The notes beneath the pieces were generated by a model. The model was not told the origin of the DNA, searched no databases, and saw nothing but the letters and a program-made list of their open reading frames with translations. 28,375 bases of DNA from a virus (lineage: Duplodnaviria > Caudoviricetes): positions 1-28,375 of the IMG/VR virus record IMGVR_UViG_3300031857_001042; one strand, 5' to 3'. Positions 3,111 to 17,026 of this stretch are shown here, piece by piece. The translations under genes were made by a program, and so were the position numbers. Positions within the stretch are counted from its first letter, which is position 1. Each line of letters opens with the position of its first letter.

Positions 3111-3897
3111 TCTGGCTCCACAAGTGTATGCTCAAGAGGCTGCACTACAACCTAAGTATCAAGCCTTACAAGATCAGCTTGCCAAACAGGCTGCTGAAAG
3201 CCAGATTTCCCTGTACCGTGGACTTCAGCCTCAGTATTCGCAGCTAGAAGAAGCATACATGAAGGACCAGCAGGCGGCGCAATTGCGCGGCTTGCAGGAG
3301 CGTGCGCCAGGGTACGTTCAAGCGTTTCAAGAAGCTCAAGGTGTTGGTGGAATCAACCAAGCTCTCCAGCAGTACACCCAGCAAAAGCTCGCTGGATTAC
3401 AGGTTGACGGAACAAACATTTCACCGCAAGAACAACGCGCCATCGAGCAGCAGACCCGCGCAGGCTTTGCGGCTCGGGGAACGGCGCTTGGCGGACAGTC
3501 CAACCTTGCCGAGGTGCTCAACCGTTATAACGCTCGTCAGGCTCGGGAACAGCAGCTTGTCGCTCTTGGCACTGGCCTTGGCGGTTACTTTGCACAGCAG
3601 TCTGCGCCGGCACTTACGTCGTTCTATCAGCAACCGATGTACGCAGGTTCGTTTGGTGGACAGGCTGCACAGAACGCGATGATGGCGCAGCAGCAGGCTG
3701 GTCCGCAATACTTCAACCCAGAGTCACAGACTGGCATGGGGTCGATCTATGGTGCGTATAACTCACAAATGCAATACGCCGCTGGGATGGCTCAAGCTAA
3801 TGCGGCGAAGAGTGCTGGCAAGATGGGCATGATCGGTTCGCTTGGCGGTGCAGTCATTGGCGCGGGAGGCATGCTTGGTGGAGCAGCCATTTTATAA
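3022..3897 (+). CDS. Internal virion/DNA ejection (pilot) protein
   Basis: N-terminal MGGGKSAAPAPPPAPNY, Gln/Ala-rich helical body and Gly-rich hydrophobic C-terminus (GMIGSLGGAVIGAGGMLGGAAIL), as in podovirus ejection proteins. Confidence 0.7.
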   Translation: MGGGKSAAPAPPPAPNYQESMRSILQAQIDLAPQVYAQEAALQPKYQALQDQLAKQAAESQISLYRGLQPQYSQLEEAYMKDQQAAQLRGLQERAPGYVQAFQEAQGVGGINQALQQYTQQKLAGLQVDGTNISPQEQRAIEQQTRAGFAARGTALGGQSNLAEVLNRYNARQAREQQLVALGTGLGGYFAQQSAPALTSFYQQPMYAGSFGGQAAQNAMMAQQQAGPQYFNPESQTGMGSIYGAYNSQMQYAAGMAQANAAKSAGKMGMIGSLGGAVIGAGGMLGGAAIL

Positions 3898-4739
3898 TGA
3901 ACACTGCATCTGCCATAACCATAATCAACAAGGCGCTTAAACACGCCAAACGGCCTGCCGTGCTTTGGAGTGGAGGTAAAGACTCCACCGTGCTGTTGGA
4001 TCTGGCTCTAAAGATTCGACCAGACATAGAAGTCATCCACTTCAAACTGCCGTTTCTATCTCACAAGTATAAGCATCACCATGAAGTGCAAGAGGAGCTT
4101 AAGCTCACAGTCCACGACTGGGTGCCAATGTCGATTGCTTTAACTCACGGAAAGAACCGGATTGACGTTTGTGAAACATATTCGATTGGGACAGGAACAC
4201 TGAAGGTGATGAGGGGGACGGAGGTTGTGGATCTTACCAAACCGTGGGTATGCGGTAAGGAGTGGCTTAATCGTCCTAAGGCGCACATTGCAAGCAACTT
4301 TGATGTTTTGCTGTGCGGCCACAAGAGCAGTGATGAAGATCCACTTACTGGTGCAGTGCCGCTGATGCTAGACATGAAACTGCTGGAAATTGGCACCGAG
4401 ATGTGGTTTCCGCTGCGGGAATGGACTGACGCAGACATCTCGCTGTATATCACTTCAAACAACGTCAAGTACGACCAAAACAGGTACGACACCGATGTTG
4501 TGTCCAAGCCAGACAAGCACATGAACAGTGACTATGTTCATGCCTGTTTTCGGTGCATCGACCGCCGGGAATCCAAATTTGTGCATTGCCCAAAGCTACA
4601 GATCGACGTAGAGAACCTGCATGAGCATGTCCTCCACGAAGAGCCAAAGTTTGAATACTGCAACATGCGAACTGGATTGCCAAAAGTGCGGGGCGTGTTG
4701 CAGCCACAAGGCCAGTTGGCCGATTCTGCGAAAGGATAG
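3897..4739 (+). CDS. PAPS-reductase-family (adenine nucleotide alpha-hydrolase, PP-loop) protein
   Basis: PP-loop AVLWSGGKDSTVLLDL, G-H-K-S-S-D-E segment, FPLREWTDADISLYI motif and C-terminal CFRC...CPK cysteines; TAATG coupling to the upstream gene. Confidence 0.85.
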   Translation: MNTASAITIINKALKHAKRPAVLWSGGKDSTVLLDLALKIRPDIEVIHFKLPFLSHKYKHHHEVQEELKLTVHDWVPMSIALTHGKNRIDVCETYSIGTGTLKVMRGTEVVDLTKPWVCGKEWLNRPKAHIASNFDVLLCGHKSSDEDPLTGAVPLMLDMKLLEIGTEMWFPLREWTDADISLYITSNNVKYDQNRYDTDVVSKPDKHMNSDYVHACFRCIDRRESKFVHCPKLQIDVENLHEHVLHEEPKFEYCNMRTGLPKVRGVLQPQGQLADSAKG

Positions 4740-9307: not shown

Positions 9308-10060
9308 ATGGCAAACATAACACGGAAGTGGAAACGCTTCCTTGCAGTCTCATGCAGCCACGGCTTCATGGCCGACCAGGCTGTACTCAAGGAAGTCCTC
9401 CGCTTTCGTGATCGCTGGAAGCCGGATACGGTGCTGCATCTGGGCGATGCCATCGACATGACCTGCTTGCGTAGTGGCGCTATCACTAACGACAGTCACG
9501 ACGCTACGGTAGATCCCGAGGCTGACCTGAACGACGGTCTGGCGTTCATCTCCGCGCTGCGCCCCCAGCATTACCTGCTTGGCAACCATGAGGCCCGGTT
9601 GGTGACACTGATGAGTCACCCCAAGGCGATTATCTCGGCTCTGGCGACCCGCGTCTATCATCAGATCCACGACCGGGCTAAGTCGATTAGGTGCAAGGTG
9701 TACGACTACAAGCTCAAGACTGGCTTCGTTGGCCTTGGTGACGCTCTCTTCCAGCATGGCTACCTGCACAGCGAGAACGCGCTGCGTGATTCTGCGGAGC
9801 GCATGTGCCACGGACGGTACACAAAACTTGTCATGGGGCACATCCACCGTGTACAAATCGCTGAAGGCAGGCGCATTAAAGGGGTGACCGGTTACTCTGT
9901 TGGGTGGCTCGGAGATCCCGAAATGGCTGGCTACGCGGAAAATAGGATTGCAACCACCGCTTGGAGCAGAGGCTGGGCGTGGGGCGAATATACTGACAAC
10001 GAGACAATTGTATGGCTAACAAAAGAACTAAAGGACGGGACATTCAAGCTGCCCCTGTAG
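9308..10060 (+). CDS. Calcineurin-like metallophosphoesterase
   Basis: Motifs SCSHG (DxH variant), LGDAID, GNHE, FQHG and GHIHR. Confidence 0.85.
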   Translation: MANITRKWKRFLAVSCSHGFMADQAVLKEVLRFRDRWKPDTVLHLGDAIDMTCLRSGAITNDSHDATVDPEADLNDGLAFISALRPQHYLLGNHEARLVTLMSHPKAIISALATRVYHQIHDRAKSIRCKVYDYKLKTGFVGLGDALFQHGYLHSENALRDSAERMCHGRYTKLVMGHIHRVQIAEGRRIKGVTGYSVGWLGDPEMAGYAENRIATTAWSRGWAWGEYTDNETIVWLTKELKDGTFKLPL

Positions 10061-10269
10061 AGGGGGACTGGCTTACACAACTTGCGGAGAACTTGGAGCT
10101 ACAGCCGGCACCTCCAGGGTGGTATACGCTGAGCCAAATCGCTCAACATCTAAAGATTGGGAGGACTGCCACAAGAAGAATCCTTCTTGAAAAGAAGGCT
10201 ATGCGGCAAAAGTTCTACCATAAGACTCAAGACGGCAGAATCATTCCGACGTTACACTACAAGCTATGA
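10012..10269 (+). CDS. Small HTH-like protein
   Basis: WYTLSQIAQHLKIGRTATRRIL resembles a helix-turn-helix; ATGA overlap with the next gene. Confidence 0.55.
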   Translation: MANKRTKGRDIQAAPVEGDWLTQLAENLELQPAPPGWYTLSQIAQHLKIGRTATRRILLEKKAMRQKFYHKTQDGRIIPTLHYKL

Positions 10270-10547
10270 CCCCCGAGGAAAAGGAACGCCAGGCCATCAT
10301 TCAACGCGCAAAGGACATTCTTTCCGAACACTTTGAGTGTGGCGAGATCCTTGTTCAAGCACAGGATGAGCTGGATAGCGACAATACGAACCGCTACGAG
10401 ACTGGCTGGGGCAACCGTTTTGCCCGAGATAGGCACATCCACCTTGTTTATCAAGATCGAGTGGTCGAACACTCTTGGACGGAAGAGTGTGGGGATGAAG
10501 ACGATGACGAGGACGACGATGAGGATGACAAAATAAAAGCAAAATAA
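10266..10547 (+). CDS. Hypothetical protein with acidic C-terminal tail
   Basis: ATGA-coupled ORF ending EECGDEDDDEDDDEDDKIKAK. Confidence 0.7.
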   Translation: MTPEEKERQAIIQRAKDILSEHFECGEILVQAQDELDSDNTNRYETGWGNRFARDRHIHLVYQDRVVEHSWTEECGDEDDDEDDDEDDKIKAK

Positions 10548-10550
10548 TAG

Positions 10551-10578
10551 TTGCGCGTAGACAAACAACGTGTAGCTT
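10551..10578 (+). promoter_or_regulatory. Sigma70-like promoter for the replication module (TTGCGC-N16-TAGCTT)
   Basis: TTGCGC at 10551-10556 and TAGCTT at 10573-10578, preceded by an A-rich tract. The same architecture occurs on the minus strand at 21718-21745. Confidence 0.6.
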
Positions 10579-10621
10579 GCACGGCATTCAGCAGATGGTC
10601 TGCTGATGAAACCTTACAAAA

Positions 10622-11263
10622 ATGAAAGTAGCACAAATTAGCGACTTAGCGAACTTGGCCGATGGCAGCGTCATCGGGGAAATGCGGGTGACGATCAAAG
10701 CGACGTTCCCGCCAAAGACAGGTGAAGGCAAGTTTGGTCCTTGGCGCGTGCAGAACGCGATCCTTCAAGATAGCACTGGCGAGTGCCGAGCATCGTTCTG
10801 GGTGCCAGATGAGATGGGTGACCTCAAGGGTCAGATGGTGACTCTTAAAAGCCAAGCTGGTAAGAAGGGGCTTCAGGGCATCAGCGTGAAGCACTCGACC
10901 CACAGTGGCGAGAACGAGCTGAAGATCACCGATCAGTGTGCCATCATCGACGACGCCGGCGCAGCAGTCGCAGCAGCAGGCCCACGCAAGCCGGTTAAGG
11001 CCAGCGACCCGATCTCATTGACGGTGGCAGACGCCAAGCGTGCGCTCTTCCAAGCAGCTCAATTGATGGCCGAGGCCATCAAGGCAGCCGAGTGGGTTGG
11101 CTCGCAGGCGCAGGTTACGCCAGAGCAGTTGCAGGCTATCGCTACCAGCTTGTTTATCTCCGCAGATCGCGCGGGCTTTGCCAAAGCATTCCCATCGGCG
11201 CAGACTAAGCCAGTCAAGAAAGACGAACCCGTTGAACTTGAGGAGGACGATCTCAAATGGTAA
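10622..11263 (+). CDS. Single-stranded DNA-binding protein, OB fold (RPA-like)
   Basis: LQDSTGECRASFW resembles the RPA OB-fold LxDxTGxIxxxxW motif; acidic-aromatic C-terminus ELEEDDLKW; first gene of the replication module. Confidence 0.65.
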   Translation: MKVAQISDLANLADGSVIGEMRVTIKATFPPKTGEGKFGPWRVQNAILQDSTGECRASFWVPDEMGDLKGQMVTLKSQAGKKGLQGISVKHSTHSGENELKITDQCAIIDDAGAAVAAAGPRKPVKASDPISLTVADAKRALFQAAQLMAEAIKAAEWVGSQAQVTPEQLQAIATSLFISADRAGFAKAFPSAQTKPVKKDEPVELEEDDLKW

Positions 11264-11436
11264 AAGCACGCGACATCTCCGTATTGTGCGGCGTCACACT
11301 CCAGACTGTCTTGAAGTGGGCGCGTGAGAACAAGATCCCGCATCACCGTATCAGCGCACGCTGCCTGCGGTTCTCAGTGGAAGAGGTCAACGCCTGGCTC
11401 CAAGCTAAACGCGATGCCAATAAACAGCAGAGCTAA
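11257..11436 (+). CDS. Excisionase/MerR-like (HTH_17-type) DNA-binding protein
   Basis: Hand-translated 59 aa, below the ORF track cutoff: MVKARDISVLCGVTLQTVLKWARENKIPHHRISARCLRFSVEEVNAWLQAKRDANKQQS. Confidence 0.8.
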   Translation: MVKARDISVLCGVTLQTVLKWARENKIPHHRISARCLRFSVEEVNAWLQAKRDANKQQS

Positions 11437-11746
11437 AGGCTGCCGAGGCGAGCGTCTCTGGCGCGACGAGTTGCGTGCGGCGGGCTTTACGGCCCGTCGT
11501 GGGCAGCAGTTCGCCGGAGGTGGCGACAGCCCGGATGTGATCTGCGAAGAGCTGCGTGGACTCCACCAAGAGGTGAAGTTCGTGGAGAATCTTAATCTCA
11601 TCAAGGCCACTGAGCAGGCAGAACGTGACGGCGCTGGCAAGCCGTGGATCGTTGCTCACAAGAAGAACCGTACTCCCTGGTTAGTCACGATGAACGCTGA
11701 GTTGTTCTTCCGGCTGCTTAGGGATGGGATGGATGGCCTGAAATAA
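11414..11746 (+). CDS. Holliday junction resolvase, Hjc-like PD-(D/E)XK
   Basis: NSRAKGCRGER...GFTARRGQQF...SPDV...EVK motif set; ATG at 11414 chosen as start. Confidence 0.85.
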   Translation: MPINSRAKGCRGERLWRDELRAAGFTARRGQQFAGGGDSPDVICEELRGLHQEVKFVENLNLIKATEQAERDGAGKPWIVAHKKNRTPWLVTMNAELFFRLLRDGMDGLK

Positions 11747-11790
11747 TTCTGCACCAATGCAGGGGCGCGACTGCACAACGCGCACACTTT

Positions 11791-12348
11791 ATGAACATCA
11801 GCATCAATATAACATATACATCTGGCACTAAAGTCGAACTGGTTGTCCCACTTGAGGAGCCATGCCAGATCGTCAGCCAGCCAGAGTCACCTGTGACGCC
11901 TGTGCAACCCGCGCAGGACTTGGCTGACGCGATGGCGGGCATCCCCGTGCTTACCGACGAGGAGCGTGAATTGCTCAAGCCATCCGGCAGACGGTACACG
12001 TCCGTGCAAGAGATGGTCGATGAGCTTAAGCAAGACCCTGAGTCAGGCAAGACGATGAGCCTGTACGACATCACCTACGTCACTCAGGACGGTAAAGAGT
12101 GGAAGGTGCCACCCGGCTTGATGAAAGACTTGATCATCATCTACGGGGAGAAGACCGTCGAGCAAGAGCTGTGGAAGGCCCACGCCTGGATCGAAGCTGA
12201 CATCCACCGTCGCAAGACCGCTCGCGGCATGGGGCGCTTCCTCAACGGGTGGCTATCCCGTGCATCGTCGATGGTGCGGACGCCGATCAAGACCCTGCTT
12301 AAACGCGACTCTTTACTGACTACAAATGGAACCCAAGAAAGCTGGTAG
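11791..12348 (+). CDS. Putative replication initiator/helicase-loader-like protein
   Basis: C-terminal ELWKAHAW...RRKTARGMGRFLNGWLSRA resembles C-terminal domains of phage replisome organizers; lies immediately upstream of DnaB. Confidence 0.5.
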   Translation: MNISINITYTSGTKVELVVPLEEPCQIVSQPESPVTPVQPAQDLADAMAGIPVLTDEERELLKPSGRRYTSVQEMVDELKQDPESGKTMSLYDITYVTQDGKEWKVPPGLMKDLIIIYGEKTVEQELWKAHAWIEADIHRRKTARGMGRFLNGWLSRASSMVRTPIKTLLKRDSLLTTNGTQESW

Positions 12349-13039
12349 GCGCAGGCCGGTGGAGTTGCCGCCTGACACGGTGGTGCCGACTGCAACCGAG
12401 GCTGAACGTGGGATAGCGTCGATTGCGCTCAACCATCCTGAGGTGTTCCTTCACCACATTAGCGAGAAGAACTTCAAGGTGGCAGACATCTTTGATCCGC
12501 TCAGTCACCGGGTATGCGAGATCATTCTACAGCAGCAGAGCCGCAACGCTTCGTCAGAAATTCGTGTGGTTTTTGAGAAGTGCCGGGAGACGCTGCCAAC
12601 AACCCAGTTCCATGAACTAAGCGACCTATACACCATCATGCCTATTGCCGGCGCGATTGGCGAGCTTATCGAGATCGTCAAGTCCACGGCGAAGCGGCGC
12701 ACCTTGCAACATGTCGCACATGAGGTGCTCATGGCGATTGGCGACTCAACCGTGCAGACGCCTGAGCTACTGAGCGATGTCGTGATGAAGGTGGAGAGTC
12801 TGTCGCGGGAGCTTGCTCCACCGAAAGTGATGGACACGAAGGCACTCCTGCTTAATGCGCTCAACCGCTACGAAACAGGCGATGACGAGTCGATGCGGAT
12901 AAAGACTGGCTACTCTGCTATCGACAACATCTGCCCGATCAGATACGGAGACTTTGTCGTCATCGGTGGTGAAACCAAATCGGGCAAAACCATGCTGGCA
13001 CTCAACATAATTGCAAACTTAATAAATGAAACTAATTAA
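12326..13039 (+). CDS. dnaB: DnaB-like replicative helicase, N-terminal part (N-domain, linker, Walker A)
   Basis: PTATEAERGIAS...DIFDPLSHRVCE (DnaB N-domain), IKTGYSAIDNI...GDFVVIGGETKSGKTMLALNI (Walker A), then a stop codon. Confidence 0.88.
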   Translation: MEPKKAGRRRPVELPPDTVVPTATEAERGIASIALNHPEVFLHHISEKNFKVADIFDPLSHRVCEIILQQQSRNASSEIRVVFEKCRETLPTTQFHELSDLYTIMPIAGAIGELIEIVKSTAKRRTLQHVAHEVLMAIGDSTVQTPELLSDVVMKVESLSRELAPPKVMDTKALLLNALNRYETGDDESMRIKTGYSAIDNICPIRYGDFVVIGGETKSGKTMLALNIIANLINETN

Positions 13040-13337
13040 CCTTACTCCTCACGACATAGCCATCACTGGCTACGGGATCGTGGAACCAAGCGGACAGTCC
13101 GTCAAAGTGCATAGTCACTTGTCCAAAGTGGCAGACGCTGACGGTGTGCCGATCATGTGCTGCAAAGAGAGCAAAGTCTCCAACCTGCCTGACCCTATGG
13201 ACGGGATACTGTACATCGTCCCGGCATACGTCAGAACGGCGTTGCCAGCCAGAACAGATTTGGCTAGTCCAACAAAACTCATCCGTGACGGAGCCGGCAG
13301 AATCGTTGGCTGCGGTGCGCTTGAAATCAACCCATAA
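13026..13337 (+). CDS. Phage hypothetical protein (NLTPH...RDxxGRIVGC type)
   Basis: MKLINLTPHDI...LPDPMDGILYIV...RTDLASP...IRDGAGRIVGC is a motif pattern I recall from other phages; it overlaps the DnaB-N stop. Confidence 0.75.
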   Translation: MKLINLTPHDIAITGYGIVEPSGQSVKVHSHLSKVADADGVPIMCCKESKVSNLPDPMDGILYIVPAYVRTALPARTDLASPTKLIRDGAGRIVGCGALEINP

Positions 13338-13341
13338 CAAT

Positions 13342-14121
13342 ATGAAAACAGAGCTATTACAAAACCTCGAAATGACAACTTACCGTGCGATGCACGGCCT
13401 GAGTAAACACAGCCTCGACGCATTTGCTGTGTGTCCCTCGTACTACAAGTGGAAGGAGAGCCAAGAGTGGAAGCCATCCCGCGAGATGGAACTTGGCACA
13501 CTCGTCCATAGCCTGGCGCTGGAGGGGCGCTGTGACTACGCTATCGCTCCAGCGTGCGACCGTCGCACGAAAGAAGGCAAGCTCATCTGGGAGAACTTTT
13601 GCCAGGCTAACATTGGCAAGGTCATTCTCAACGAGGATGAAGGGGCGCGTGTAGAGGGTGCCTGTGCTGCCGTGGAGCCGCTCCTTGAGATGGTGACAGC
13701 AGCGAAGGTGATCGAAGCGTCCATGTTCTGGGAGCGCGACGGCGTGCAGTGCAAGGGCAGGCCGGACATGATAACCGAGATCAAGGGTCGTCCGGCTATC
13801 GTTGACCTTAAGACGACCAGCGACTGGTCTAAGTTCGACCACAAGTTCTTTGGGTTTGGCTACGACAAGCAGGCCGCTTGGTACACCTACGGTCTTGAGC
13901 AGATCACCGGCCAAGAGGACATCGACTTCTACTTCCTCGTCGTCGATATGCAAGCGCCCCATCTCTCGCAGTGGGTGAAGGCGTCGAGCGAACTCATCGA
14001 CATTGCTAACCAGCAGCTCGACGTGACACTGTCGCAGTACAAGCTGTGCCTCGACCAAAACGTGTGGCCTGGTCCACCAACGATGCGCGTGATGCTGCCG
14101 CGTAGATGGGAGGAAGCATGA
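13342..14121 (+). CDS. RecE/Exonuclease VIII-like PD-(D/E)XK exonuclease (DUF3799-like)
   Basis: YRAMHGLSKHSL, GTLVHSLALE, CKGRPDMI, IVDLKTT and YDKQAAWY motifs; ATG at 13342. Confidence 0.88.
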   Translation: MKTELLQNLEMTTYRAMHGLSKHSLDAFAVCPSYYKWKESQEWKPSREMELGTLVHSLALEGRCDYAIAPACDRRTKEGKLIWENFCQANIGKVILNEDEGARVEGACAAVEPLLEMVTAAKVIEASMFWERDGVQCKGRPDMITEIKGRPAIVDLKTTSDWSKFDHKFFGFGYDKQAAWYTYGLEQITGQEDIDFYFLVVDMQAPHLSQWVKASSELIDIANQQLDVTLSQYKLCLDQNVWPGPPTMRVMLPRRWEEA

Positions 14122-14426
14122 GCAACGAACTAAGTGACGCAACATTGCGAGATCAGATTTACGGGATGGAGTTTTTAATGACTGATGGATGCACTCGCTG
14201 CCCAAAAGACATTCTTGATCTTGCCATCAACAGATACGGAGAAGAGACTGTTTACAAAGAGATGCTGAAGGCAGATAAGTGGTTGCTTTCACATGCAGCA
14301 AGACACAAGAAACGTAGAGTTTCTGGAATCGGATTGTTTTTGCTGAACTGGTTTGAGAGTGCCGCCTTCTTTCGTTTGCGCGACGCAGAACAAAAGAAAA
14401 ACTCATACAACAGATGGGAGGACTAA
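14118..14426 (+). CDS. Hypothetical protein, paralog of the C-terminal domain of 11791-12348
   Basis: YGEETVYKEMLKADKW...GIGLFLLNWFESA aligns with YGEKTVEQELWKAHAW...GMGRFLNGWLSRA; ATGA coupling. Confidence 0.7.
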   Translation: MSNELSDATLRDQIYGMEFLMTDGCTRCPKDILDLAINRYGEETVYKEMLKADKWLLSHAARHKKRRVSGIGLFLLNWFESAAFFRLRDAEQKKNSYNRWED

Positions 14427-14427
14427 C

Positions 14428-14670
14428 ATGAGCGACTGGGTACTCATCCGCCGTACAAACGTCCTGCAAGACGTGGAGCTGCCCCGCCCCAAGCGCACGC
14501 AGGACATCATCTGTGTTGGCCCGAAAGACGCACTCGGCTCCAAGATGGAGGCACTCATGCTACTGCCGGAGAATCAATCGACGGATCTTATCGAGGTGAA
14601 GTATGTGCTTGAGCCGTACACTGGCCAGCACTCGCACACTTCGGCACGGCCTGGTAATGGAACACGCTAA
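14428..14670 (+). CDS. Hypothetical protein
   Basis: GGAGG upstream of ATG 14428; the stop overlaps the next ATG (TAATG). Confidence 0.65.
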   Translation: MSDWVLIRRTNVLQDVELPRPKRTQDIICVGPKDALGSKMEALMLLPENQSTDLIEVKYVLEPYTGQHSHTSARPGNGTR

Positions 14671-15448
14671 TGTGGATACTGCCAAAACAATTACACACGT
14701 TGGCCTCTGTGCAGGCTACGGAGGCATTGAACTTGGACTTAAACGAGTCCTCCCAGCTTTGCGCTCAGTCGCTCTTTGTGAGATCGAAGCCTTCGCCATT
14801 GCGAACTTGGTTGCAAAAATGGAAGCGGGACTCATGGACGCAGCACCTGTTTGGACGGATCTTAAAACCTTCCCTTGGGAAAGTTTTCGAGACCGAGTGG
14901 ACATCCTTACTGGTGGTTATCCCTGCCAGCCATTCAGTGCAGCAGGCAAGCGAGCCGGTAAGGACGACCCAAGACACTTGTGGCCTTGGATCGCAGATGG
15001 AATTGCTGCCATGCGACCCAGAGTCTGCTTCTTCGAGAACGTCGAAGGACACATCTCGTTGGGACTCTCCAGCGTCATTAGCGATCTGGAAGAAATGGGT
15101 TACAAAGTGTCGTGGGGCATATTTAGCGCGGCTGAATGCGGTGCTGTTCACCAGCGCAAACGAGTGTTTATCTTGGCCGACGATCAGAGCGAGCGAGTAC
15201 AAAGGATGTGGTCCGCTTGGCAGCAAGAGTCACATTTATCGAGTCAGCAAGTTTTATCTGGATGCGGTCGCCCAAGAACGGACTGGTCAGACGGGACGAC
15301 TGAACCCATCCTGGTGCGAATGGCTGACGGGGGTGCCAATTGGGTGGACAGGATGCGCCTCCTCGGAAACGGAGTCGTCCCAGTCACAGCAGCTTTAGCG
15401 TTTACCACACTACTAAATGAACAAAGGAATCCTCGTCATCTCGCTTGA
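14657..15448 (+). CDS. C5 cytosine DNA methyltransferase, alpha polypeptide (motifs I-VIII and X)
   Basis: LCAGYGG (I), GGYPCQPFSAAGKR (IV), FFENVEG (VI), HQRKRVFI (VIII) and RMRLLGNGVVP (X). Alternative start is GTG at 14672. Confidence 0.9.
   Translation: MEHANVDTAKTITHVGLCAGYGGIELGLKRVLPALRSVALCEIEAFAIANLVAKMEAGLMDAAPVWTDLKTFPWESFRDRVDILTGGYPCQPFSAAGKRAGKDDPRHLWPWIADGIAAMRPRVCFFENVEGHISLGLSSVISDLEEMGYKVSWGIFSAAECGAVHQRKRVFILADDQSERVQRMWSAWQQESHLSSQQVLSGCGRPRTDWSDGTTEPILVRMADGGANWVDRMRLLGNGVVPVTAALAFTTLLNEQRNPRHLA
14670..15398 (+). CDS. Nested alternative-frame ORF: probable C5 methyltransferase beta polypeptide (TRD/motif IX)
   Basis: 242-codon open frame fully inside the MTase gene, TAATG-coupled to the upstream gene, containing WPTIRASEYKG and RLNPSWCEWLTGVPIGWT. 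Confidence 0.75.
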   Translation: MWILPKQLHTLASVQATEALNLDLNESSQLCAQSLFVRSKPSPLRTWLQKWKRDSWTQHLFGRILKPSLGKVFETEWTSLLVVIPASHSVQQASEPVRTTQDTCGLGSQMELLPCDPESASSRTSKDTSRWDSPASLAIWKKWVTKCRGAYLARLNAVLFTSANECLSWPTIRASEYKGCGPLGSKSHIYRVSKFYLDAVAQERTGQTGRLNPSWCEWLTGVPIGWTGCASSETESSQSQQL

Positions 15449-16001
15449 GATGCCAGCGAATCAGATCATCGACCGGCTCGTCGCCCGGCTAGGCAGCGTC
15501 AGCCTACGCACCCTCGCTGAAGGAGCCAAGCTGGAGCGTGACATCAGGGGCGTCCACAGTGCCATCCAGAAGCTCAATAGCAGCCGTTTGGTTGTGCGCG
15601 ACGACCTGTACGATATCGCCAACATCTGCGCCACGGCACGGGCTATGGCTAAGTCCCCGGATGGCCTTGGTGTGCTGTTTGTAGACTATATCCAGTTGGT
15701 CAGGTGCGACCTAGGCAAGGACAGCAGCCGTGAGCGTGAGGTGGCTGAGGTCAGCCGTAGTTTGCGACTGCTCGGCATCGAATTAGGTTGCTTAGTCATC
15801 TCAATTACGCAACTAAATGAGCAGGGCAAGGCTCGCGAAAGCCGCGCAATCGGACAAGACGCTACAGCCGTGATGGTTGTGAAGCTCTCCGATGAGGCGG
15901 AGTTCCGCGAGATTAGCATCCCCATCCAACGCAACGGGCCGTGTGGCGTCAGTGCAAATCTGCGATTCCATGGCAAAACTGCAACCTTCCACAATGAATA
16001 A
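15417..16001 (+). CDS. dnaB: DnaB-like replicative helicase, C-terminal part (motifs H1a-H4)
   Basis: ILVISLEMP (H1a), VLFVDYIQL (Walker B), REREVAEVSRSLRLL...ITQLN, RESRAIGQDA and QRNGP. Confidence 0.9.
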   Translation: MNKGILVISLEMPANQIIDRLVARLGSVSLRTLAEGAKLERDIRGVHSAIQKLNSSRLVVRDDLYDIANICATARAMAKSPDGLGVLFVDYIQLVRCDLGKDSSREREVAEVSRSLRLLGIELGCLVISITQLNEQGKARESRAIGQDATAVMVVKLSDEAEFREISIPIQRNGPCGVSANLRFHGKTATFHNE

Positions 16002-16209
16002 ACACTACCAAAGTTACATGAAAATTGAACCTGACAACTCCAACAAAGCCGTACCCTACCTGTGGGGCTTTGCCACTCTGGCCGTCTTTGACGGTCTCGC
16101 TATCGCTTGGTTTGCCGAAGAGCTGTGGGAAGCCATCGTGCTGCTCATTCTGTTCTGGGCAAGCGCACTGTTTGCAGCCTCAGCGATGGAGGAATGGAAG
16201 GGCCGGTGA
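15994..16209 (+). CDS. Small membrane protein (two hydrophobic segments)
   Basis: YLWGFATLAVFDGLAIAWF and AIVLLILFWASALFAA; ATG at 15994. Confidence 0.6.
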   Translation: MNKHYQSYMKIEPDNSNKAVPYLWGFATLAVFDGLAIAWFAEELWEAIVLLILFWASALFAASAMEEWKGR

Positions 16210-16379
16210 AACGAGTCTGCAAAGACTGCGGGGCGCAATTGGTACGAGACTTCTTTGGAGACTGGTTTTGCGATGAATGTGAAGCCGAGAAAATGAAGAA
16301 CCCACCAAAACTACAACTGATCATTGCACTGCTGAGCATATTGGCATTCGCAATCGGTTTTGCACTCGACCGGGAATGA
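16206..16379 (+). CDS. Small zinc-finger protein with C-terminal TM helix
   Basis: GTGA overlap start; CKDC...CDEC followed by LIIALLSILAFAIGFAL. Confidence 0.6.
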   Translation: MKRVCKDCGAQLVRDFFGDWFCDECEAEKMKNPPKLQLIIALLSILAFAIGFALDRE

Positions 16380-16627
16380 GCGCACAATTAATCGACACAC
16401 TCATGGAGAAGATCCATGTACTAACAACAGAAAACAAACGACTAACAGATGAGAATCAGAAACAGGCAAAGACAATCGAACGGCTGGGTCGCCAGGTTGC
16501 GGAGGGTCGATCCACGGGAGTGGAGATTGCGGATCATGGAACTTCCGGTGAAGCTACAGGTATTTGTGGCGCAGATCGTGTGGTGGGACTACTTCGGCGA
16601 CAAGACGGTGCCGAACCGTTGGCCTGA
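16376..16627 (+). CDS. Hypothetical coiled-coil protein
   Basis: ATGA coupling; heptad-like IHVLTTENKRLTDENQKQAKTIERL. Confidence 0.55.
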   Translation: MSAQLIDTLMEKIHVLTTENKRLTDENQKQAKTIERLGRQVAEGRSTGVEIADHGTSGEATGICGADRVVGLLRRQDGAEPLA

Positions 16628-16790
16628 GCTTGACCTGTGGCTCTGTGCACATCCCTGCACTTTCCGCAAAGAAATGTGGCCTCCGACTGAGGAAATGGTT
16701 GATGCGCTGATTAGCATCGGGTACGAAGAAAGGACGGCACTACGCCGGATGAACGTAAATCAAAATACAAAATGGAAGAAGTACAATTAA
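16449..16790 (+). CDS. Hypothetical protein (start uncertain, 16449 or 16536)
   Basis: Trp-rich globular-looking ORF bridging its neighbours. Confidence 0.55.
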   Translation: MRIRNRQRQSNGWVARLRRVDPREWRLRIMELPVKLQVFVAQIVWWDYFGDKTVPNRWPELDLWLCAHPCTFRKEMWPPTEEMVDALISIGYEERTALRRMNVNQNTKWKKYN

Positions 16791-17026
16791 GACAGTATCA
16801 AGAGGCGCACAACAAGCAGGTTGAGACTATCACTCAGCTTCGCAACCAGCTCAGGCAGTACAAACACTTCTGCTTGCAAGCCGCTGAGGTCATCGAGTCA
16901 CTCAAGCACCGGGTGCTGCGTACAAATGACAACGACAGTGCATTCCCGAACGACCGCACGATCCTGCTCGACGCCGATCTGGTGCTTAGTGAGTGCTACA
17001 GGATGAACCTGAAGGAGGGGAGATGA
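16772..17026 (+). CDS. Hypothetical coiled-coil protein
   Basis: Part of a chain of overlapping plus-strand ORFs. Confidence 0.6.
   Translation: MEEVQLRQYQEAHNKQVETITQLRNQLRQYKHFCLQAAEVIESLKHRVLRTNDNDSAFPNDRTILLDADLVLSECYRMNLKEGR

Follow-up and report, generated by a model that had tools for sequence, protein, structure and literature searches.

An intein-free layout of genes in pieces is known for a few phage enzymes. In Aeromonas phage Aeh1, ribonucleotide reductase is split into NrdA-a and NrdA-b, with the homing endonuclease gene mobE at the break and acquired tails that are needed for assembly (PMC3045599); Aeromonas phages 25 and 44RR have split polymerases (gp43A/gp43B), and the topoisomerase of T4 is split by mobA (PMC2988022); and the polymerase of PhiKZ is divided into DNAP-N and DNAP-C (PMC13648687). 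The fractured gp41 helicase genes (gp41-1 to gp41-9) carry split inteins, and their products are ligated to one chain (PMC2677866). These statements, and the comparisons drawn from them below, refer to the available parts of the four reports. Here we describe a predicted DnaB-type helicase divided between two genes in a stretch of 28,375 nucleotides of a tailed phage (positions 1 to 28,375 of IMG/VR record IMGVR_UViG_3300031857_001042), the whole of which is called the window. This 28-kb virus record is linear and its completeness is about 70%; podovirus-like tail, terminase and portal genes are found on it.

The locus resembles Aeh1 NrdA in that an essential phage enzyme is cut through its active site between core strands and appears to be made as two separately translated chains with no splicing; as in Aeh1, the active-site residues are shared between two intact open reading frames (ORFs), both under selection. 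Aeh1 NrdA is a reductase found split in one phage, with mobE and with tails that are needed, whereas here a presumed ring motor is split throughout a whole clade, at least three ordinary conserved genes lie in the gap, tails can be missing and a probable re-fused form is present. The nuclease that is constant in the gap is exonuclease VIII-like, unlike the free-standing homing endonuclease of the Aeh1 break. Like gp43A/gp43B, the T4 topoisomerase and the PhiKZ polymerase, the locus would encode an intein-free, two-gene replication enzyme with interdigitated chains; those are polymerases and a topoisomerase, whereas here a superfamily 4 (SF4) helicase is concerned and the cut in the RecA fold parts Walker A from Walker B. 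With gp41-1 to gp41-9 it shares a DnaB-family phage helicase in two genes, a nuclease gene between them and purifying selection, but those genes carry split inteins and the DnaB halves have no intein sequence. Domain order, fold, Lys/Thr, Glu, Asp, Gln and Arg finger are those of DnaB/SF4 helicases (TIGR00665, PF03796, PF00772; PDB 4esv, 6bbm, 8a3v); unlike a typical DnaB, the protein is in two chains, lacks the Lys finger and has a shorter loop ahead of the RES motif. No description of an intein-free split DnaB was found in literature searched by title and start of abstract, a search outside which most subscription journals lie, and genome supplements could mention one. Such a layout in a ring-shaped helicase thus appears not to have been described in the literature covered, and no selfish element is evident in the sequence.

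Position and conservation of the split

The two genes are encoded on the same strand, 2377 nt apart, and are placed, together with the segment containing Walker A, as follows:

12326..13039, + strand: DnaB N-chain gene, 237 aa (N-terminal collar domain, linker helix, first RecA-fold strand, Walker A loop and next helix)
12950..12991, + strand: N-chain strand 1 (residues 209-213) and Walker A (residues 214-222), assigned by model and conservation
15417..16001, + strand: DnaB C-chain gene, 194 aa (catalytic Glu11, Walker B Asp90, Gln132, RES at 140-142, Arg finger at 172)

The original prediction, made from the letters of the window alone, had claimed a DnaB split into these two ORFs, with Walker A on one and the catalytic Glu and Walker B on the other. 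Both claims were borne out: the quoted end of the N-chain and start of the C-chain are present and the halves gave complementary profile coverage. They tiled the 435 positions of TIGR00665 (3-222 for the N-half and 224-432 for the C-half), and in the same way covered PHROG 19 (155-377 and 381-580) and Pfam DnaB_C (2-45 and 49-255), the cut-off of this last family being exceeded by the C-half. When E. coli DnaB (6bbm) was used as reference, the N-half profile stopped at residue 247 and the C-half profile began at residue 254; these edges place the break in the loop between the helix that follows Walker A and the strand bearing the catalytic Glu. Walker A is located on the first ORF, and the catalytic Glu, Walker B and the Arg finger on the second; the functions assigned to Walker A, to the catalytic Glu and to the two fingers (Lys and Arg) follow in part a published report (10.1101/2021.04.08.438047). 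The domain order of DnaB/SF4 proteins (collar domain, linker helix and RecA-type C-terminal domain) was recognized from TIGR00665, from PDB profile matches and from the fold of a fused relative. It had further been claimed that the halves are exactly collinear with E. coli DnaB when merged at a shared Asn. This is true in the window, but the residue count and the shared Asn are specific to its subclade and the length of the loop varies.

With the two halves as queries, viral relatives numbered 108 in one search and 101 in the other; 80 were kept from each, and additional searches supplied further loci. After pooling and de-duplication, 87 distinct loci with both halves were available, the window included (from IMG/VR, the Joint Genome Institute (JGI) and one metagenome-assembled genome (MAG)). 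The same loop was broken in all 87. A comparison of this kind had been proposed as a check, and it showed a conserved split position with varying intervening genes, the gaps measuring 1299-3820 nt (67 different lengths) with accessory genes present or absent. Three genes formed the constant set of every gap, as determined by tblastn and ORF clustering: F1, an exonuclease VIII-like gene and F2. The N-half was found upstream in 73 of the 80 viral loci with a C-half, and the remaining seven had less than 2 kb of upstream DNA. Among protein clusters of 106-340 aa (best 120 of 211), none contained Walker A and 103 began with a Met 8 residues ahead of the SLEM motif; the split explains more than 100 database entries labelled "replicative helicase" that are devoid of Walker A. 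In ten long genome records, nine rated 100% complete and the tenth with terminal repeats, the only matches to DnaB_C were the two half-matches, and no other DnaB was detected in any of them. Across the clade the N-halves have diverged to about 43-60% identity. Sequencing runs containing the stretch were mostly from freshwater; no relative with more than 60% identity was found among 50,697 GenBank phage records, nor was any cultured member. One split locus (L357:245-4680) was located on a 13-kb contig of a Pedosphaera sp. MAG that also contains a phage terminase, which is a weak hint of a Verrucomicrobiota host; this contig may be a mis-binned phage.

Residue invariance was scored on the 79 full pairs, the other eight of the 87 loci being partial. 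G214, G215 and K218-T222 (Gly-Lys-Thr of Walker A) in the N-chain, and Glu11, Asp90, Gln132, RES and Arg172 in the C-chain, were invariant in all 79. The ratio of nonsynonymous to synonymous substitution rates (dN/dS), calculated by the Nei-Gojobori method among 41 close relatives (C-chain identity above 90%), was 0.057 for the N-chain and 0.042 for the C-chain, with 0.019 for the strand-P-loop-helix segment and 0.065 for the collar domain; the controls gave 0.055 (exonuclease), 0.077 (F1), 0.116 (F2) and 0.143 (upstream ORF), all these figures being descriptive because the pairs share ancestry. Purifying selection acts on both halves. The claim that neither half is degraded was confirmed, and the proposed dN/dS check revealed no relaxed selection. 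Conservation of the strand-P-loop-helix segment was 0.77 in split forms and 0.72 in contiguous relatives, and that of the C part 0.73 and 0.60, respectively. An additional interface constraint in the split forms was considered and is not claimed, the segment not being clearly more conserved (0.77 vs 0.72). Taken together, the sequence comparisons indicate a real, conserved and very likely functional split.

Proposed assembly of the two chains and alternative explanations

A complex of N-chain residues 165-237 and the C-chain with ATP and Mg was modelled as a 1:1 pair. It reached an interaction score (ipSAE) of 0.93, against 0.36 for the best control, with 184-191 contacts, agreement of at least 97% between runs and a partner predicted local distance difference test (pLDDT) value of 85; the mark of the tool is reached by 116 of 157 solved pairs and by 2 of 215 mismatched pairs. 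In the model, N-chain residues 209-213 (strand 1) were placed between C-chain residues 126-130 and 151-155. Since this central strand of the N-chain would itself be the clasp, no tail or intein would be needed. The model points to a geometric fit and not to binding in the cell.

We consider it likely, from sequence and model, that the two genes encode a non-covalent two-chain helicase of the DnaB type, assembled without splicing and predicted to be active. Support for the composite active site foreseen in the original prediction comes from conservation and selection, from motifs that do not vary, from the absence of another DnaB copy and from the model. The DnaB-type helicase would be produced from two genes whose boundary falls in a surface loop, after the Walker A helix and ahead of the catalytic-Glu strand. 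Both genes lie in one tightly packed run on the same strand, and their starts would be reached through translational coupling to their neighbours. The chains would be made independently and would then form a two-chain subunit, in which the first beta-strand of the N-chain is predicted to enter the middle of the C-chain sheet and its helix to pack on that sheet. Such subunits would build the usual six-membered ring, a ring of 12 chains by analogy with the family, in which each ATP site would combine the P-loop of an N-chain with Glu, Asp and Gln of its partner C-chain and with the Arg finger of the C-chain next to it. If active, this hexameric RecA-fold motor tolerates a break between Walker A and the remainder of its ATP site without an intein or a tail, stably throughout a clade. 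Rings could also be built from this natural pair of chains so that the P-loop chain and the motor chain are labelled or mutated independently.

Several findings weigh against this two-chain helicase. The Lys finger, two residues ahead of the Arg finger, is replaced by I, Y, F or W in all 79 full pairs, whereas Lys occupies that position in the solved Vibrio cholerae DnaB, and the loop ahead of RES is shorter by about a dozen residues. Both features are also found in the closest contiguous relatives, and they are therefore a trait of the subfamily older than the split; they call for caution about helicase activity in the subfamily as a whole. In addition, two halves cut from a solved fold should reach the mark of the modelling tool by likeness, so the complex score may reflect memory of solved DnaB structures, and only the 1:1 pair was modelled, the ring or hexamer being assumed from the family.

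The altered finger and shortened loop would also suit a complex in which the halves pair without forming a processive fork helicase, acting instead as a loader, a recombination motor or a modulator of the host DnaB, or in which each half also acts alone. The curated equivalog cut-off of TIGR00665 (385 bits) was not reached by the halves (51 and 102 bits), and the fused relative P0121 stayed far below it (144 bits); moreover, a RecE-like recombination nuclease is present in every gap. Such another function is nevertheless unlikely: the full DnaB architecture has been kept, including a collar domain under constraint, the top fold matches are all replicative DnaBs, and this is the sole DnaB-like gene in each of the ten genome records. 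We give similarly little credence to an adaptive version of the two-chain helicase in which the split alters how the ring is built, the N-chains (P-loop and collar) pre-assembling or sitting at the origin and the C-chains closing the motor around DNA later. Were such staged assembly true, it could make activation timed or independent of a loader, or conceal the intact helicase from sensors of the host, and F1 and F2 might chaperone or gate assembly.

Joining of the halves into one chain after transcription, either by ribosome bypassing or by a gene-packed group I/II intron, was also weighed. Bypassing of the T4 gene 60 type features matching take-off and landing codons, and the original prediction had noticed that in the window the last N-chain codon and the second C-chain codon are both Asn codons. 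Of the 87 loci, only 8 had the same residue at the end of the N-chain and at the second position of the C-chain. The N tail measured from the Gly-Lys of Walker A varied from 14 to 40 residues, and added tails ranged from absent to about 26 residues and were not conserved. The C-chain start is nearly fixed, with an ATG 8 codons ahead of SLEM in 83 loci, and in theory an intron might terminate at the G of this ATG; in the other four loci the chain starts 1 to 12 codons farther upstream, and some C-chains have N-terminal extensions. Which DNA lies 5' of the C start depends on the gene that precedes it, even among phages 95-100% alike, and gaps were 89-100% coding (median 1.0). This start seems to behave like an ordinary coupled start: it overlaps the preceding stop as ATGA in 40 of the 87 loci, an upstream stop lies at most 60 nt away in 77, and in the window the ATG is immediately 3' of an in-frame TAA. 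Rfam searches of window positions 12800-15700 gave no match at E<=5. Group I R- and S-like motifs, searched with generic patterns, were not found in the gap of the window; over the 87 gaps they stayed near the level of shuffled sequences, occurring in 25 and 25 against 33.7 and 17.8, and in correct order in two. Contigs of RNA from four runs contained no joint between the N end and the C start, the four joints listed lying elsewhere; with patchy coverage, rare forms lost in contigs and DNA possibly present, they count neither for nor against joining. The other sequence data largely refute joining after transcription, which we regard as very improbable, and the gene 60-like bypassing that had been suggested was not supported.

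Because phage helicases often host split inteins (PMC2677866), it was also considered whether the chains are joined through a cryptic split intein or a protein-ligation tail, in the manner of the fractured gp41 genes. There is no room for an intein, since the shortest N-chains end where the helix does, 14 residues after Gly-Lys, and in most C-chains three residues precede the conserved strand; Pfam-type searches of the window matched no intein family, and this explanation is extremely improbable. The claimed absence of intein, homing endonuclease and intron hallmarks from the gap of the window was upheld, with no family, Rfam or core-motif match. Assembly artefact and gene decay are refuted, as all 87 loci, whether from IMG/VR, from JGI or from the MAG, are split alike and selection is strong. 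Excisable DNA that would restore the gene is extremely improbable, given that the only word common to both gap ends in the window (8 nt) joins the halves out of frame and that the recurrent families of gap genes include no recognized recombinase.

Contiguous relatives and origin of the split

Contiguous phage relatives that share the missing Lys finger and the shortened loop showed 39-52% identity. A natural contiguous relative, P0121, was modelled with a DnaB fold (pLDDT 87.8; template modelling (TM) score 0.81 to 4esv_L), in which the junction is a coil (234-239) between a helix (220-233) and a strand (240-244). Trees were built from 45 rows for the C part and 38 rows for the N part, from which five long-branch contiguous rows were omitted. 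Split forms grouped in one clade (support 98/93 for C and 97/95 for N), sister to the contiguous P0122/P0240, and both trees gave largely the same subclades. Within this clade, beside the split locus L213 and with support of 99/97 in both trees, were the contiguous P0121 and P0239 (431 aa, 97% alike, from 9- and 40-kb contigs). Their 90% cluster also includes P0237, a C-chain of 196 aa with the usual start, from a short contig. Monophyly of the split forms only was rejected by the approximately unbiased (AU) test for N (p-AU 0.004) and for N+C (0.0045), values weakened because the group was named after the trees had been seen.

One split followed by re-fusion is the simplest reading of these sequences. 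Speaking against re-fusion, monophyly was not rejected with the C-half alone (p-AU 0.12) and the fused form is represented by two protein records (P0121 and P0239); recombination or repeated splits are possible alternatives. According to the reading with re-fusion, one ancestral split would have put the F1-exonuclease-F2 block in the loop, with later gain and loss of other genes there and re-fusion in one or more lineages. Either the three-gene block inserted into the gene and so split it, or a duplication was followed by reciprocal loss; both origins are possible. At the sister contiguous locus L363, no match to the three gap genes was found in the 9.6 kb available, nearly all of which is downstream. 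The natural set of split and re-fused forms (P0121/P0239 versus L213/P0237) allows a direct look at the cost of gene fission.

Two further observations concern the C part. In P0003, the start of the C-chain is like that of the clade of the window and its later part like that of the L071/L077 clade, which suggests recombination inside the C gene between diverged subclades. P0289 and P0428 (5.0- and 1.3-kb contigs) are deeper C-half-like proteins of 226 aa that start just ahead of the catalytic-Glu strand; they are possibly a deeper member, an independent split or fragments, and no viral locus was found for P0289.

Genes in the gap and its neighbourhood

The gap of the window and the gene preceding the N-chain contain the following genes:

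11791..12348, + strand: upstream gene overlapping the N-chain start, directly 5' of the N-chain in 9 of the 9 split loci listed
13026..13337, + strand: F1, core gap gene, 103-aa phage protein without assigned function (PHROG 30542/21731), in 87 of 87 gaps
13342..14121, + strand: exonuclease VIII (RecE)-like PD-(D/E)XK nuclease, core gap gene (PHROG 412, Pfam DUF3799, NF007259), in 87 of 87 gaps
14106..14426, + strand: accessory gap gene, paralogous to the C-terminal portion of ORF 11791-12348 (E 6e-10), in 5 of 87 gaps
14428..14670, + strand: F2, core gap gene, 80-aa protein without family match, recognized by tblastn in 82 of 87 gaps and by ORF clustering in the remaining five
14603..15448, + strand: catalytic chain of a C5 cytosine methyltransferase, accessory gap gene, in 21 of 87 gaps
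14670..15398, + strand: methyltransferase-associated chain (PHROG 1008) in a second overlapping frame, accessory, in 19 of 87 gaps

The exonuclease, the paralog, the hypothetical proteins and the methyltransferase pair had been described correctly from the sequence. The label "initiator" given to the paralog did not find support: neither ORF 11791-12348 nor its paralog, whose C-terminal domains are 31% identical over 71 aa, matched any family in Pfam, PHROG or TIGR00665-type profile searches. ORF 11791-12348 is possibly a putative initiator or loader. For F1 and F2 no function was obtained from the Atlas, where F1 falls in unnamed viral clusters. Homing endonuclease families (HNH, GIY-YIG and Vsr-like) had no match among the gap genes of the window, the rare gap families of other loci being only partly annotated. 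Accessory gap genes also included a deoxynucleoside monophosphate (dNMP) kinase, in 33 of the 87 gaps, and the two-frame methyltransferase is a mobile cassette that lies outside the gap in L213 and L357.

The ATG of F1 overlaps the N-chain stop in the window. A scan of window positions 10000-17000 for sigma-70-like promoters gave 0 sites, versus 3.2 expected, and a terminator scan gave 5 sites, versus 6.5 expected. The promoter count and the tightly overlapping starts and stops may point to expression through translational coupling. Outside this region, a gene with a 3'-phosphoadenosine 5'-phosphosulfate (PAPS) reductase domain was found among the structural genes (3897-4739), making DNA or nucleotide modification possible.

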